64,000 nt of DNA from Candidatus Omnitrophota bacterium. GTDB lineage: Bacteria; Omnitrophota; Omnitrophia; Omnitrophales; Aquincolibacteriaceae. Position numbers and translations under genes: made by a program. The notes under the pieces are model-generated. The model saw only the letters and a list, made by a program, of their open reading frames with translations, was not told the DNA's origin and made no database searches. Location: assembly GCA_041674705.1 (NCBI GenBank), contig JBAYVF010000004.1, positions 38,516 to 102,515 of the forward strand, in the 5' to 3' direction. Position 1 is the stretch's first letter; each line of letters begins with the position of its first letter. This document shows positions 11,801 through 60,690 of the stretch, piece after piece.

Positions 11801-12036
11801 CGGAGGGGATGCCCCTTGAAGAAGCCGTGATCGATGCCGGGGTGAAGCGCTTCAGGCCGATGCTTTTGACAGCGGCGGCGGTAGTCGTCGGCGCATCGGT
11901 CATTCTGTTCGACCCGATCTTTCAGGGTTTAGCCGTCGCCTTGATGGCGGGGGAGATCGCCTCGACGATCCTTTCTCGAACCGCAGTTCCTGTTTTCTAT
12001 TACATGATGGCTAAAAAAACAGGGACTCGGGACTAG
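8812..12036 (+). CDS. RND efflux transporter permease (AcrB/CzcA-type)
   Basis: 1074 aa. 12-TM RND architecture with large periplasmic loops. Confidence 0.85.
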   Translation: MATHHSDIISGIVSYFAKSKITPLIIAASLIIGVFAVINLPREEEPQISVPMFDIFVAYPGADSKEVEQRIVTLGERKLWEIPGVEYVYSTIEPEGALIIVRFKVGEDVEKSLIKLYTKVYSNLDFLPSDATQPLIKVRSIDDVPILTLTFHGKDKDPVVLRRTVANVQNIVNAIPDVSETRITGGRKRQFQVFFDEEKLKARLLNPLEITQIIRSANVKQSAGHLESAPELESVEANSFFRTKSDLENLVVGASAGSVVTLKDIAKVVDGPDEEERASEIFFGPASKEKDKGPFDAVTLSISKRKGANAAHLSEVILHAIKELPETTLPKDVEMTVTRDYGETAKEKSNELLFHMAIAIFGVSVLIAWVLGLRESGVVAIAIPMTLALTLATFYFLGYTLNRITLFALIFSIGILVDDPIVDVENIVRHLRLPDNKGKSILDITIEAVNEVRSPLILATLTVIAAILPMAFVSGLMGPYMRPIPIGASAAMMFSMFVAFVATPWAAYQILGRAFAQGKLKAHHEGEKEDFLTHLYRSYMNPLIYNAKIRQWFLIGLGTLLALAVLLVPLKLVRMKMLPFDNKNEFQVVLNMPEGTPAAKTQAVITEIADYLVTTPEVKDIEMYVGSAAPYNFNGLVRHYFLRSKPFQADLQVNLAGKHQRKRQSHDIAKAVRPRIHEIVKKHGGHVQVAEVPPGPPVLSTLVLEIYGPTLEGQTKLAKQIEGLLASSEGVTDIDTYIQSPEKLMRLRVNTQKASLNGIPVAQIAEVITTAVGGKTVDLAHLSEEYEPVEILLRLPKEKRAGMESVLNMTLLSRYGNPIPVRELVDIEKDTKDPAIYHKNLMRVSYVIADVAGKFESPAYAILKLKKEIAKMPVPVNQEGQKTLDQLFNGQPQTTDRWTLKWDGEWQITYEVFRDLGIAFVFVLLLIYALVVGWFQSFKTPWIIMLPIPLTLVGILPAHWLGGVFFTATSMIGMIAGAGIVVRNSIILVDFIEMRRAEGMPLEEAVIDAGVKRFRPMLLTAAAVVVGASVILFDPIFQGLAVALMAGEIASTILSRTAVPVFYYMMAKKTGTRD

Positions 12037-12073
12037 GGACTCGTTCCTCGAAAGAGTTTTGACGAGTCCCGAG
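12022..12073. repeat. REP-like GGGACTCG/CGAGTCCC palindromic element (copy 1), overlapping the RND stop codon
   Basis: GGGACTCGGGACTAGGGACTCG...CGAGTCCCGAG. The same motif family is present at 17758-17867 and 60626-60690. Confidence 0.6.
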
Positions 12074-16325: not shown

Positions 16326-17773
16326 ATTATGAGCCCGTGATAGGTTTGGAAGTGCATGTTCAATTGAAGACAAGATCAAAGTTGTTTTGTTCTTGTTCCA
16401 CCACTTTTGGCGAGGAAGGTAATAAGAATACATGCCCCGTGTGTCTCGGCTGGCCGGGGTCATTGCCGGTACTGAACGAAGCGGCGCTGAAACTCGGGAT
16501 TCGGGTGGGGCTTGCGCTTAATTGCAAGATCGCCGAGCGGCTCAAGTTCGACCGGAAGAATTATTTTTATCCGGATCTTCCCAAAGCCTACCAGATCTCG
16601 CAATTCGATATGCCGGTGAACGGCCGCGGCGAACTTCTCATCGAAACAAAAGATGCGGAAGGAAAAATGATCGAGCGAAAGATCGGGATTACTCGTGCGC
16701 ACCTGGAAGAAGATGCCGGGAAGCTTCTGCATGAAGGCATCGCGGACGGCAGTCTCGTGGACTACAACCGCGGCGGTATCCCGCTTCTTGAGATCGTCTC
16801 CGAACCGGATCTCGGAAGCCCGCAAGAGGCGCATGACTATCTCACCGCGCTCAAGGCCATCCTTCAATATGTGGAAGTGAGCGACTGCGATATGGAAAAG
16901 GGGAGCCTTCGCTGCGACGCGAACGTGTCGGTGCGGCCCGTGAGCCAGGAAAAACTCGGGACCAAGGTCGAGATCAAGAACCTGAACTCGTTCAAGATGG
17001 TGGCGCGAGCGATCCAGTACGAGATCGAACGGCAGACGGAAGCGCTTGAACGCGGGGAGGCGATCGTCCAGGAAACGCGACTTTGGAGTGACGCCGAGGG
17101 CATGACGGTTTCCATGCGTTCCAAAGAAGATGCCCACGACTACCGTTATTTTCCCGAGCCCGACCTTGTGCCTTTCACCTTGTCGCGCGAAGTCGTAGAG
17201 GCGATCCGGAAGACTTTGCCGGAATTGCCGCTTGAGCGCGCGAAGCGGTTCATCAAAGAATTCGGCATTCCGGAATATGATGCCTATGTGCTGGTGCAGG
17301 AGAAAAAACTGGCCAACTATTTTGAATCCTGCATTCGCGAAGGCGCCGCGCCGAAGCTCGCGAGCAATTGGATCCAAAATGAACTCTTGGCGCTGCTGAA
17401 TGTGAAAAACATCGCGATCGATGAGTGCCTGGTTTCGCCCCACGCGCTTGCCGGACTGATCCGGCTGGTCGAAAAAGGGATCGTAAGCGGGAAAACCGCT
17501 AAAGATGTTTTTCAGGAAATGGCGGCGACCGGTAAAACGGCGGACGTAATCGTTAAAGAAAAAGGCCTCACGCAGGTTTCGGATACCGGGCTCATTGAAA
17601 AAGCCGTTGAAAAAGCGATCGCCGCGAATCCCACGGCCGTCGCGGAATTCAAGGCCGGCAAACAAAAAGCCCTCGGCGCGCTGGTGGGTGCCGTTATGAA
17701 AGAAACCGGCGGCAAGGCGAATCCGAAAGTGGTTAATGAAATTCTCATTAACAAGCTGGGGACTCGTAGCTAG
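16322..17773 (+). CDS. gatB: Asp-tRNA(Asn)/Glu-tRNA(Gln) amidotransferase subunit B
   Basis: 483 aa, canonical GatB. Its last codons (GTRS*) are supplied by the REP-like element. Confidence 0.95.
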
Positions 17774-17867
17774 GGACTCGCACCTCGTGAAAAAAACTAC
17801 TCGTACCTCGTACCTCGTATCTCGGGACTCGAAAAAACGAGGAACTAGTCCCGAGTCCCGAGTCCCG
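17758..17867. repeat. REP-like GGGACTCG/CGAGTCCC element (copy 2), with CTCGTAC x3 and GTCCCGA x3 tandem units
   Basis: GGGACTCG x3, CTCGTACCTCGTACCTCG, CGAGGAACTAGTCCCGAGTCCCGAGTCCCG. Overlaps the gatB 3' end and the nominal tsaD 5' extension. Confidence 0.6.
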
Positions 17868-17876
17868 CTCTACACC

Positions 17877-18875
17877 TTGGGGGTAGAAACTTCCTGCGAC
17901 GAAACGTCGTGTTCGGTGCTGAAAGGCAAAGACACGATCCTCTCCAACGTGGTTTCCTCCAGTCTTTTCCGGCACAAGAAATTCGGCGGCGTGGTGCCCG
18001 AGATCGCGTCCCGGCACTGCATGGAACAGATCCAGTGCGTGTTCGAAGAAGCACTTCGACAGGCTCAGTGCAAGGCGCAGGATTTAGATCTGATCGCGGT
18101 CACGCAGGGCCCGGGTCTTATCGGTTCGCTTCTCGTGGGAGTCTCCTTCGCAAAGTCGTTGGCCTATCAACTTGGAATTCCCATCGTGGGTGTGAACCAT
18201 ATGGAAGCGCATCTCGTCGCGAATTTTTTCGGGACTCCGGAACCCAAACGCTATATCGGGCTCCTTGTTTCCGGCGGGCATACGATGCTCACGTTCTGCG
18301 AAAAAGGGAAGATCCATATTCTTGGCGAGACGGTGGATGACGCGGTCGGCGAAGCATACGACAAAGTCGCGAAGATCATGGGTTTGAGTTATCCGGGCGG
18401 GCCTATCCTTGATAAACTTGCGAAAGAGGGGAACCCGTGCGCTTTTCATTTTACCAGGCCGAAGCAGGACGAGCGTTTCAACTTCAGTTTCAGCGGCGTG
18501 AAAACGGCCGTGCTTTATCAATTTCAGGATCCGAAAACGGGGAAGCCGAATCCAGCGGCGCCTTCGGTGAAAGATATGGCGGCGAGTTTTCAGCACGCGG
18601 TGATCGGATGGCTTGTGGAAAAAGCGCTCGACGCGGCGGAATTTAAAAAGGCTTTCGACATCGTGGTGGGCGGCGGCGTGAGCGCGAATTCTTATTTGCG
18701 GGAGAAGCTCACGCGGGACGGCGCCGCAAAAGGCATCAAGGTCTGGTTCCCGCCGTTCGTGCTGTCGACCGACAACGCAGCCATGATCGCACGCCGGGGT
18801 TTTGAGCTTTTTAAACGAGGCTGTTGTTCTCCGCTCAAGATGACGGGAAATCCCGCTTTAGCTTTGGGCCGCTGA
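17877..18875 (+). CDS. tsaD: tRNA N6-adenosine threonylcarbamoyltransferase TsaD (Kae1/YgjD family)
   Basis: GVETSCDETS and HMEAHL motifs. The ORF-track start at 17736 is rejected. TTG at 17877 is the nearest in-frame start before the conserved N-terminus, so the start is uncertain. Confidence 0.8.
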   Translation: MGVETSCDETSCSVLKGKDTILSNVVSSSLFRHKKFGGVVPEIASRHCMEQIQCVFEEALRQAQCKAQDLDLIAVTQGPGLIGSLLVGVSFAKSLAYQLGIPIVGVNHMEAHLVANFFGTPEPKRYIGLLVSGGHTMLTFCEKGKIHILGETVDDAVGEAYDKVAKIMGLSYPGGPILDKLAKEGNPCAFHFTRPKQDERFNFSFSGVKTAVLYQFQDPKTGKPNPAAPSVKDMAASFQHAVIGWLVEKALDAAEFKKAFDIVVGGGVSANSYLREKLTRDGAAKGIKVWFPPFVLSTDNAAMIARRGFELFKRGCCSPLKMTGNPALALGR

Positions 18876-19478: not shown

Positions 19479-19507
19479 TTGACACTCCGAGAGCAAAAAG
19501 CTAGAAT
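19479..19507 (+). promoter_or_regulatory. Sigma70-type promoter for hisG (TTGACA-17-TAGAAT)
   Basis: TTGACA at 19479-19484 and TAGAAT at 19502-19507. Confidence 0.45.
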
Positions 19508-19516
19508 CCGCTCCCT

Positions 19517-20398
19517 ATGACAACAGTGAACAAGCTTAAAATTGCATTACCCAAGGGCAGTCTCGAAGAAGCGACCTATAATCTCTTCAAGCGGGCCGGC
19601 TTCAAGATCAACGTTAACTCCCGTTCCTACATTCCTTCCATTGATGATCCCGAGATCGAAGTGGTCCTCTTCCGCCCCCAAGAGATGTCCCGTTATGTTG
19701 AAGACGGCATTGTGGATTGCGGCCTCACCGGGCATGACTGGATCGTGGAAAATGACTCCGATGTGGTCGAACTTTGCGAGCTTCAATATTCCAAGCGCAC
19801 CTCCAATCCTGTCCGCTGGGTTCTGGCCGTGCACGAATCGTCGCCCTTTAAAAGCGTCAAGGACCTGAATGGCAAAAAGATCGTGACCGAGCTCGTGGGT
19901 GTAACGAAGCGCTATCTTAAAAAGAACAAAGTGACCGCGGAAGTGGAATTCTCGTGGGGGGCCACGGAAGCCAAACCGCCGCGTCTTGCGGATGCCATCG
20001 TGGAAGCCACCGAGACCGGCTCCAGTCTTCGCGCGAATAAACTCAAGATCATTGACACCGTGATCGTTTCGATACCGAAGTTCATCGCAAATAAGAAAAG
20101 CGTGAAAGACTCCTGGAAAAAACACAAGATGGACAATCTGATCATGTTGCTTCAAGGCGCGATGCGTGCCCAGGAAAAGGTCGGCCTTAAGATGAATGTC
20201 GAGAAGAAGAACCTGCAAAAGATCCTGAGTCTTCTCCCGGCCATGAAAAAACCGACCATTGCGAATCTTACGGATAAGAACTGGCTGGATGTCGAGACCA
20301 TCATCGACGAGTCTGTGGTCCGTGAGTTGATCCCGGCGCTCAAGGCGGCCGGCGCCTCAGGCATCATCGAATATCCGCTCAATAAAGTTATTCCCTAA
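19517..20398 (+). CDS. hisG: ATP phosphoribosyltransferase, long form
   Basis: [10 protein letters not shown]...GLTGHD N-terminal domain plus C-terminal regulatory domain. 293 aa. Confidence 0.9.
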
Positions 20399-20424
20399 AA
20401 CCATCATCCAAAGGAGTTCCATTC

Positions 20425-20523
20425 ATGCCTTGGGCTCGTAAACAGCGCAAGAAAAAGATGAACAAGCATAAGCGCAAAAAAAAGTTGCGCCGGAACCGTC
20501 ACAAGAAAAAAGACTGGTCCTAG
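20425..20523 (+). CDS. bS22-type small basic ribosomal protein (AURKAIP1/DUF1713-like), 32 aa (not in ORF track)
   Basis: MPWARKQRKKKMNKHKRKKKLRRNRHKKKDWS*. AAGGAG Shine-Dalgarno 8 nt upstream. Pattern matches bS22 (RKxRMxKHKxKKL..RH). Confidence 0.65.
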   Translation: MPWARKQRKKKMNKHKRKKKLRRNRHKKKDWS

Positions 20524-20545
20524 TTTTAAGTCACAAAGCTGCAAG

Positions 20546-20604
20546 GCCACAAGGACACAAAAGAAATGCTCGCGAGGCATGTGTCCTTGTGGCTTTGTGT
20601 CTTT
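20546..20604 (+). terminator. Strong hairpin (14-bp stem GCCACAAGGACACA/TGTGTCCTTGTGGC) plus T-rich tail after the bS22 gene
   Basis: Arms at 20546-20559 and 20580-20593, then TTTGTGTCTTT. It could also act as an attenuator before ispE. Confidence 0.55.
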
Positions 20605-20617
20605 AAGAGGGGTCTCC

Positions 20618-21493
20618 ATGCAAGCGCTCACTCTGAAGAGTCCGGCGAAACTCAATCTCTACCTCCGTATCCTCGGAAAACGGCCGGACGGATATCACAA
20701 ACTCCTGACGCTCTTTCACCGTATTTCGCTTGTCGATACGATCGTGATCCGTAAAAGCTCTCAAGGTTTTAAACTTTCCACAAATATTGCCTCACTTGAA
20801 ACCGGGGAAGGCAATCTCATCACCCGGGCCTACCGGGAGCTTCAACGGAAATTCCCCAGGTTGGGCGGGGTTTCTGTGCGGCTTACCAAGCGCATTCCGC
20901 TCGGCGCCGGATTGGGAGGCGGTTCCAGTAATGCCGCGTCATTTCTGCTAGGCATGAAAAAGCTTTTCAGGCTCAAGATATCTCGGCAAGAGCTTTTTTC
21001 TATAGGGAAAAGACTTGGCGCGGACGTGCCGTTCTTCCTTTCAGAGGCGCGGCAAGCCATGGCTTGGGGGATCGGGGATAAGCTGCAAAAAGTGCCTTCG
21101 GGCGTCCGTTTGGGGTTCCTTTTGTTGGTGACCGATCAGGGGCTGAACACGAAAAAAGTCTATCAGAAACTCGCCAGGAGCGGGCGGCCCCTTTCCTTGA
21201 CAAAGGAAAAGCGTATTGCTAGAATCCTGCGCTCTTTTCTCGCAAGCAAGAGGGTTCGGGAGGCTTCGGAATTCGCGCGAAATGATCTGGAAATCCCGGC
21301 GTTTCGCTTGATGCCATCCATTCCTAAAGCGATCACGGCTCTCAAAAACTTTGGCGTTCCCTATGTCCTTATGAGCGGAAGCGGGGCCACGGTCTTCGCA
21401 GCGTTCTCCAGCCGGGAAGAAGCTTTAGACCTATCGAAGAGATTGAAAGAAGTTCCCTTTCCTTTTCGCAAGGTGATTTGTCACTCATACTAG
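20618..21493 (+). CDS. ispE: 4-diphosphocytidyl-2-C-methyl-D-erythritol kinase
   Basis: KLNLYLRILGKRPDGYH and PLGAGLGGGSSNAA (GHMP kinase) motifs. Start moved to MQALTLKSP. Confidence 0.85.
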   Translation: MQALTLKSPAKLNLYLRILGKRPDGYHKLLTLFHRISLVDTIVIRKSSQGFKLSTNIASLETGEGNLITRAYRELQRKFPRLGGVSVRLTKRIPLGAGLGGGSSNAASFLLGMKKLFRLKISRQELFSIGKRLGADVPFFLSEARQAMAWGIGDKLQKVPSGVRLGFLLLVTDQGLNTKKVYQKLARSGRPLSLTKEKRIARILRSFLASKRVREASEFARNDLEIPAFRLMPSIPKAITALKNFGVPYVLMSGSGATVFAAFSSREEALDLSKRLKEVPFPFRKVICHSY

Positions 21494-22078: not shown

Positions 22079-22086
22079 CAAAGTAT

Positions 22087-22157
22087 TGCCCCGTGGTGAA
22101 ATGGTATCACACTGCCCTTTGGAGGCAAGGTTTCTGGTTCGAGCCCAGACGGGGCAG
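22087..22157 (+). tRNA. tRNA-Gln (anticodon UUG)
   Basis: Hand-folded cloverleaf. Acceptor TGCCCCG/CGGGGCA with U1:A72 and G73. U8. D-arm GTGA-AATGGTA-TCAC. Anticodon loop CTTTGGA. T-arm TCTGG-TTCGAGC-CCAGA. No CCA is encoded. Confidence 0.8.
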
Positions 22158-22415
22158 ATTTTAAGAATCAAAGAACGGTTTTAAGGGAGCCCTTTTCCGC
22201 CTGAGGCGGATTCGTCCGCAAGGCGAATCCGATGATGAACGGATTCGCCTCTGGCGAAGGAGGCAAGGTTTCTGGTTCGAGCCCAGACGGGGCAGATTTT
22301 AAGAATCAAAGAACGGTTTAAGGGAGCCCTTTTCCGCCTGAGGCGGATTCGTCCGCAAGGCGAATCCGATGATGGACGGATTCGCCTCTGGCGAAGGAGG
22401 CAAGGTTTCTGGTTC
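22121..22415 (+). repeat. Tandem 138/137-bp repeat (about 2.15 copies), each unit starting with the 3' half of tRNA-Gln (GGAGGCAAGGTTTCTGGTTCGAGCCCAGACGGGGCAG)
   Basis: Units begin at 22121, 22259 and 22396. The last unit is truncated. Units contain several small GC hairpins (CCGCC-TGA-GGCGG, CGGATTCG..CGAATCCG). Confidence 0.75.
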
Positions 22416-43767: not shown

Positions 43768-43826
43768 ACGCGGGGAACGGCGAGCGAGAAATATTAGTTT
43801 TTGCGTTCGGCGTTCCCCGTTTCCAG
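43768..43826 (+). terminator. Imperfect long hairpin (CGGGGAACGGCG.../...CGTTCGGCGTTCCCCG) after glnK1: possible terminator or enhancer site
   Basis: About 17-bp stem with 2 mismatches and an AT-rich loop. A short T-run follows. Confidence 0.4.
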
Positions 43827-60539: not shown

Positions 60540-60625
60540 TTAGGGACCCCTTAGTTAGCTTATTTAGGAGAGCAAACAGGAATAGTATACATAAACGGGT
60601 TTTAAAGTAAATCCAAATGGAAAAC

Positions 60626-60690
60626 GGGACTCGTACCTCGGGACTCGTTTTGGTTCCTCGTTTTTACGAGTCCCTAGTCCCGAGTCCCGG
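60626..60690. repeat. REP-like GGGACTCG/CGAGTCCC element (copy 3)
   Basis: GGGACTCGTACCTCGGGACTCG...CGAGTCCCTAGTCCCGAGTCCCG, upstream of hom. Confidence 0.6.

Follow-up and report, generated by a model that had tools for sequence, protein, structure and literature searches.

A Candidatus Omnitrophota genome carries, between its hisG and ispE genes, an open reading frame (ORF) of only 32 codons, closely followed by a strong hairpin. Whether this ORF is a gene, what its product would do, and whether the hairpin ends its message or governs expression of ispE are the questions raised by the locus. A sequence-only reading had proposed an unannotated ribosomal protein gene of the bS22 family followed by a terminator or attenuator. 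Here, we report a computational follow-up covering the window (the whole 64-kb stretch of DNA analyzed) and related loci from public genomes. Our full account, to which we assign a probability of roughly 80%, is that a translated bS22 gene forms part of a hisG-bS22 message, that the hairpin acts on this message as a leaky terminator or stabilizer, and that ispE is expressed by read-through.

The locus and its hairpin

Features of the locus are collected in Table 1. The 32-aa ORF, its Shine-Dalgarno (SD) motif, and the spacer between them are exactly as the sequence-only reading had them. The ispE start is most likely at 20618 (MQALTLKSPAKLN), which yields a protein of 291 aa, as in homologues; the gap between the U-rich tail and this start is 14 nt.

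Table 1. Features of the hisG-bS22-ispE locus, with positions in the window
Feature	Positions	Strand	Details
Promoter-like site	19479-19507	+	TTGACA-17-TAGAAT; 11 of 12 matches to a consensus that may not apply to Omnitrophota
hisG, long-form ATP phosphoribosyltransferase	19517-20398	+	HisG + HisG_C (PF01634, PF08029); 293 aa
Shine-Dalgarno motif	20411-20416	+	AAGGAG; 8 nt 5' of the bS22 ATG
bS22-like ribosomal protein gene	20425-20523	+	ATG to TAG; 32 aa
Stem-loop after bS22	20535-20604	+	Perfect 14-bp core plus imperfect flanking extensions
U-rich tail	20594-20604	+	TTTGTGTCTTT; 8 T in 11, broken by G and C
ispE (GHMP kinase)	20618-21493	+	Putative SD GAGGGG at 20607-20612

At the loci shown, the gene order was gatB-tsaD-mgtC-hisG-ORF-ispE-spoVG, with the ORF 3' of hisG in each. 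Loci L010 to L013, found in a scan of GTDB species representatives, are from Candidatus Omnitrophota metagenome-assembled genomes. The sequence-only reading had proposed a check of the hisG-bS22-ispE arrangement in relatives and had named a lack of homologues in conserved synteny as what would speak against the gene; order and peptide are kept across nine distinct Omnitrophota loci. In one sub-lineage (L003, L006, and L010), ispE is separated from the bS22 hairpins by one additional ORF, which encodes 80 to 118 aa without any Pfam match (about 6104/6218-6460 in L003 and L006).

Beyond these genes, the window carries a tRNA-Gln(UUG) at 22086-22158, whose last ~35 nt at the 3' end, T-arm included, recur in a tandem array with a 137-nt unit (22121-22415; 2.1 copies, 98% matches). 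A serine recombinase gene is found just after spoVG in relative L006 and in ENA contig ERZ1426827, and the arrangement of tRNA-Gln repeat and nearby recombinase looks like the att-site scars of an integrative element.

The perfect 14-bp hairpin noted earlier was seen 3' of the ORF: its core arms, GCCACAAGGACACA (20546-20559) and TGTGTCCTTGTGGC (20580-20593), are perfectly complementary (8 G-C of 14 pairs), and with the extensions the stem reaches about 20 pairs. No inverted repeat in the 64-kb window is longer than this one at 20535-20604. From the stop codon, it is 22 nt to the perfect core and 11 nt to the imperfect extension. The predicted fold has a free energy of -39.2 kcal/mol (z, -3.4 in one calculation and -4.8 in another, the latter with 0 of 200 shuffles as stable), and its 20-nt loop is partly closed by a 4-bp mini-stem. 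About 2.4 copies of the 8-nt unit CAAGGACA (period 8) make up the 5' arm. The description of a "T-rich tail" was apt in composition, with 8 T in 11 positions, but the tract is interrupted, and part of it pairs with the upstream CACAAAG. A consensus terminator scan of the window flagged only an inner 8-pair sub-hairpin, because of the 20-nt loop and the interrupted U-tract. The window hairpin thus has neither a short loop (3 to 8 nt) nor an uninterrupted U-tract.

Each of the nine distinct loci has a very stable hairpin after bS22 (z, -4.6 to -7.9; 0 of 200 shuffles as stable at each), its position and stability being kept while the sequences are unrelated, and it is followed by a U-rich tail at six of the nine. 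L001, L005, and L007 have U6 to U7 runs and an additional short hairpin right after the stop codon. L011 to L013 have no U-tract, and their 3' arm ends within a few nucleotides of the ispE start codon; the hairpin arms of L011 and L012 are built from heptamers. Termination may therefore not be a function common to all of these hairpins, given the three relatives without a U-tract. Hairpins also follow bS22 in L003, L006, and L010, where a different ORF comes next, which argues that the hairpin belongs to the 3' end of bS22 and not to the leader of ispE. Interleaved stems, as in a pseudoknot or a terminator/anti-terminator pair, were considered for L001, L005, and L007 and rejected, as folding gave one long nested hairpin and the short first hairpin. 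In Rfam, the window region and L001 gave only a tRNA and sub-threshold matches to generic miRNA-like hairpins.

Similar structures lie elsewhere in the window. Intergenic hairpins at 12021-12071, 17758-17867, and 60625-60689 have arms of GGGACTC, CTCGTAC, or AGTCCCG heptamer units, and one at 43771-43819 has arms of the 7-nt unit GGGGAACGG, a type that is also found 3' of bS22 in L001, L005, and L007. These heptamer arms recall the STRR heptamers of cyanobacteria. The tsaD ORF, as called mechanically from 17736, overlaps gatB and crosses a heptamer-repeat hairpin; the lengths of homologues (334 to 366 aa) suggest that the true tsaD start lies later, near 17877. Of the 25 most stable 90-nt windows, 12 fall in the non-coding 11% of the window, and the bS22 hairpin ranks about 23rd in stability. 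No further copy of its arm was found within the 64-kb window at up to 3 mismatches, so it is not a dispersed identical repeat, although the architecture does recur. The hairpin after bS22, whose architecture is shared by further intergenic regions of the window, is therefore an ordinary member of a general gene-boundary class, of which this genome has many, and no special device; hairpins of equal strength are common between its genes.

This recurrence bears on the alternative that survives best, which we consider possible but doubtful: the hairpin would be no terminator but a copy of a genome-wide, fast-evolving family of intergenic stem-loops with arms of 7- to 8-nt tandem repeats, in the manner of REP elements or of the STRR heptamers of cyanobacteria. 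These stem-loops might be RNase processing sites or mRNA-stability elements, or might do nothing specific for bS22 or ispE. The short tandem units in the arms of the bS22 hairpin (period 8) and of the four intergenic hairpins named above agree with it, as do the entirely different repeat units of the orthologous hairpins in relatives, the absence of a U-tract in three of nine relatives, and the share of the most stable windows (12 of 25) that lies in the non-coding 11%. It is opposed by the U-rich tract right after the stem at six of nine loci, those of L001, L005, and L007 (U6 to U7) being textbook terminators. Nor is it exclusive of termination, since a repeat-derived hairpin can still terminate. 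The operon-internal boundary hairpins of this clade may form a distinct class, with arms of lineage-specific 7- to 8-nt tandem repeats, and may undergo full sequence turnover between close relatives while position and stability are kept. If so, leaky terminators that set the ratios of neighboring cistrons, here a ribosomal protein versus ispE, would be generated and tuned by repeats.

Product of the small ORF

The product of the ORF is MPWARKQRKKKMNKHKRKKKLRRNRHKKKDWS, with 12 K and 6 R (18 of 32 residues; 56%), which agrees with the size (about 28 to 33 aa) and the K/R content (over one-half) of the bS22 family. Across the nine distinct Omnitrophota loci, the ORF has 22 variable nucleotide sites, of which 19 are synonymous; synonymous changes make up 17% of all possible single changes in the ORF. 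The only amino acid changes are R5S and R23K. The 60 nt on each side of the ORF are about 30% identical among these loci, which is the random level, and the GGAG 5' of the bS22 ATG is kept in all nine while the remaining upstream sequence diverges. Among relatives, the peptide is 97 to 100% identical, HisG 88 to 96%, and IspE 46 to 63%. Judged by this conservation, the ORF is a real gene, strongly conserved and under purifying selection.

An exact-sequence look-up found the peptide in 120 blocks of a public assembly collection (24 contigs inspected). The term "unannotated" was accurate for function but not for gene calls, since at least 54 public contigs already carry a prediction of the exact peptide; it and its close homologues are named only "hypothetical protein" (JGI) and "FL=1" (MGnify). 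We aligned 27 close homologues, the first of which (P0002) is identical to the window protein. All are 32 aa long and 81 to 100% identical to the window protein, with 19 invariant columns; K29 and S32 are invariant and W3 and W31 nearly so. A query lengthened by eight in-frame upstream codons (20401-20520) returned only this close 32-aa Omnitrophota family. Among 1.8 billion representatives, a single relative was found at E ≤ 0.001, a 32-aa query having little statistical power.

Searched against PDB with phmmer, the peptide matched "30S ribosomal protein bS22" of Borrelia burgdorferi (8fmw_V; E = 7.6e-4), residues 1 to 28 aligning to residues 1 to 28 without a gap. The next matches were 9i5v_10 and 7jil_5 ("30S ribosomal protein S22"), and a mycobacterial-type DUF1713 chain matched weakly (E = 1.7). 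A profile of the 27 homologues gave 8fmw_V at 4e-7, 9i5v_10 at 2.6e-5, and 7jil_5 at 9.3e-5; the only further matches among 177,635 PDB sequences were to mitochondrial mS38. Identities to the Borrelia protein (18 of 28) were not reached by any of 2,000 composition-preserving shuffles (maximum, 14), and the phmmer score (22.8 bits) was not reached by any of 500 (maximum, 13.2 bits). Since no K/R-preserving shuffle attains the observed identities or bits, composition does not explain the match. In an alignment of five sequences (the window protein, its relative P0001, and three bS22 proteins from solved ribosome structures), M1, P2, K6, K11, H15-K16-R17-K18-K19, and R25-H26-K27-K28 are invariant; these include the non-basic M1, P2, H15, and H26, and N24 is present in four of the five.

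The search with DUF1713/bS22 models that the sequence-only reading had advised as a check gave sub-threshold scores, 16.4 bits versus a cut-off of 23 for PF08213 (COX24_C) and 8.7 bits versus 34 for NF047430 (ribo_bS22), but neither model discriminates. As a control, the verified bS22 proteins of Borrelia, Flavobacterium johnsoniae, and 9i5v were scored with both models and gave lower values or none. Because the curated models also miss structurally verified bS22 proteins, sub-threshold scores say nothing on membership. AlphaFold2 predicted a helix over residues 2 to 31 (pLDDT, 86.5), which agrees with bS22 but is weak evidence, as K/R-rich peptides of any function tend to be predicted helical; the model, built without rRNA, did not reproduce the bend of the ribosome-bound bS22 helix. 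A Foldseek search with this single-helix model gave no match, as expected for one helix.

The window peptide is, by its full-length, gap-free PDB matches solely to bS22 and then mS38, above all shuffles, a bS22 homologue, and its presence in the ribosome would follow from that homology. The earlier assignment thus stands as to family, while the branch is the Spirochaetota/Bacteroidota type and not the actinobacterial type. The ORF is most probably translated. By homology to the Borrelia, Flavobacterium, and mycobacterial bS22 chains, its product would be one highly basic alpha-helix that inserts into the 16S rRNA pocket formed by h2/h27/h44/h45 at the subunit interface, making it a structural part of the 30S subunit.

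That the product is instead a conserved small basic peptide outside the ribosome, for example one binding RNA or DNA, with a likeness to bS22 that arose by convergence through K/R richness, seems quite improbable. The sub-threshold PF08213 and NF047430 scores and the setting of the gene among biosynthetic rather than ribosomal protein genes could be read that way, but the similarity is positional rather than compositional (0 of 2,000 and 0 of 500 shuffles), extends to non-basic positions (M1, P2, H15, and H26 invariant; N24 in four of five), and links the peptide in PDB to bS22 and mS38 only. Known bS22 genes likewise lie outside ribosomal protein operons, and Spirochaetia locus L014 has a cdaA-like gene 3' of its bS22-type ORF. 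Among the Spirochaetota loci listed by tblastn (L014 to L022), none gave a HisG or IspE match.

Outside Omnitrophota, the closest genomic relatives of the bS22 gene are Spirochaetota loci with a bS22-type peptide of 59 to 69% identity. Six further matches (L040, L042 to L044, L052, and L057) are titled Firmicutes, Muribaculaceae, or Coriobacteriaceae and come from H076xx "cleanbin" isolates of one study. In peptide sequence they do not differ from the Spirochaetota type, and these matches may reflect bin contamination and not a wider distribution of bS22.

Transcription of the locus

A promoter-like site precedes hisG at all nine loci examined (the window, L001, L003, L004, L005, L007, and L011 to L013). 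In the window, its -10 hexamer ends 9 nt 5' of the hisG ATG, and this distance is exact in six of the nine. The site is likely the promoter of a hisG-bS22 unit, judging from its match and position, and the hisG mRNA would probably be leaderless or nearly so, as the 9-nt distance in six loci suggests. A consensus scan found no promoter-like site at any locus within 250 nt 5' of bS22 or in the bS22-ispE interval. Inside ispE (window positions 21197-21225), about 290 nt 5' of spoVG, is a TG-extended TTGACA-17-TAGAAT site; it is kept (TTGACA-17-TA[G/A]AAT) at the same relative position in all nine loci, in which IspE is just 46 to 63% identical, and may be an internal promoter that gives spoVG a long 5' untranslated region.

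Given a promoter-like site before hisG and none from bS22 to ispE, the most likely role of the hairpin is that of a leaky terminator or stabilizer inside a hisG-bS22-ispE unit. In the proposed mechanism, the conserved TTGACA-17-TAGAAT promoter would drive bS22 as the second cistron, translated from its own SD, and the stem-loop with its U-rich tail would form the 3' boundary element of the hisG-bS22 message, most likely as a leaky Rho-independent terminator and/or a 3'-end stabilizer. As ispE starts 14 nt past the tail and has no recognizable promoter, it would receive only the read-through fraction, and for the same reason termination would have to be incomplete. The hairpin would then set a fixed ratio of hisG and bS22 to ispE, with no response to a signal. 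Joining this layout to the repeat-built arms gives a reading that we hold as rather unlikely, namely, a class of repeat-built leaky terminators together with obligatory co-transcription of hisG and bS22. In that case, a leaderless hisG and bS22 may always be transcribed together from the one conserved promoter; if true, the supply of a ribosomal protein would be linked to the enzyme that opens histidine biosynthesis.

A regulated attenuator or riboregulator of ispE, responding to translation of the bS22 ORF, to autoregulatory binding of bS22, or to a metabolite, appears very improbable. Passage through the hairpin would indeed decide transcription of ispE, which begins 14 nt past the tail without a recognizable promoter, and in L011 to L013 the 3' arm reaches within a few nucleotides of the ispE start codon. 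However, the intergenic sequence is about 29% identical (random) while the protein is identical, which argues against a specific site for a protein or ligand; the folds showed one dominant hairpin and no alternative anti-terminator pairing; and the core stem begins 22 nt past the stop codon, too far away to be melted by a ribosome terminating there. Rfam returned no matching family, and the hairpins after bS22 in L003, L006, and L010 are present despite a different next ORF. Of the two roles first offered for the hairpin, that of terminator is plausible, and the idea that it would insulate ispE or attenuate read-through agrees with the promoter layout, whereas that of regulated attenuator finds no conserved sequence, alternative structure, or Rfam family to match it. 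The last alternative, that an A-rich stretch happens to be open in this frame or that an antisense ORF of 83 aa (20404-20655, minus strand) is the real gene, can practically be set aside: the ORF is short and of low complexity and the opposite ORF is longer, but 18 of the 22 variable sites fall at codon position 3 of the plus frame (antisense position 1), a substitution pattern that effectively refutes the antisense gene, the antisense ORF crosses the non-conserved hairpin, and the peptide is identical across genomes with IspE just 46 to 63% identical.

Comparison with known systems

Ribosome structures have so far shown bS22 in Actinobacteria, Bacteroidota, and Spirochaetota; in Bacteroidota and Spirochaetota, it came to light solely through cryo-EM density that had no other explanation. 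A constrained orthologue in Omnitrophota, an uncultivated phylum, broadens the known distribution of bS22. The bS22 family itself is known, and what is new is the first functional assignment of a "hypothetical" peptide in Candidatus Omnitrophota. Among the top 10 of 4,972 papers listed by a full-text literature search, bS22 was unmentioned, and a paper naming both bS22 and Omnitrophota may still exist. NF047430 and PF08213 miss the Spirochaetota/Bacteroidota/Omnitrophota-type branch, and its genes are left "hypothetical" or uncalled; a model built from this branch would mend annotation in many genomes. No current view is challenged, and the hairpin and promoter layout make a simple operon model that is not unusual.

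With intrinsic terminators, the window hairpin shares a stable stem of moderate G+C content 3' of a stop codon and a U-rich stretch behind this stem; it differs in its 20-nt loop, its interrupted U-tract, and a stem far longer than is typical.

Among proteins, bS22 of B. burgdorferi (bb0822; PDB 8fmw chain V) is similar in size and charge, with a K/R content of 61% (PMC10618245), and shares with the Omnitrophota protein the pattern M-P-x2-R-K-x4-K-x3-H-K-R-K-K-K-x-R-x-N-R-H-K-K. Residue 3 is a clade-specific W in the Omnitrophota protein and C in the Borrelia protein, and the former has a 4-residue C-terminal extension, K-D-W-S. The Omnitrophota gene starts with ATG behind a strong SD, whereas the Borrelia gene starts with GUG, and the genomic neighborhoods differ. 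The Borrelia gene was absent from the annotation until the cryo-EM structure, has no transposon insertions (making it an essential-gene candidate), and has an abundant transcript; the authors of that study predicted bS22 in other bacteria (PMC10618245). The bS22 proteins of F. johnsoniae (Fjoh_1533; PDB 7jil chain 5), which was a "hypothetical protein" before cryo-EM (PMC7797042), and of 9i5v chain 10 are identical to the window protein at 16 to 17 of 29 positions and collinear from residue 1; those of Bacteroidota end at HKKK plus one residue, without the two tryptophans of the Omnitrophota protein. Actinobacterial bS22 and mS38/AURKAIP1/COX24 belong to the same basic-helix family and occupy the same rRNA pocket (PMC10618245), and the Mycobacterium smegmatis-type bS22 and mS38 (PF08213; NF047430) match the window protein weakly, at sub-threshold scores, over its residues 5 to 29.
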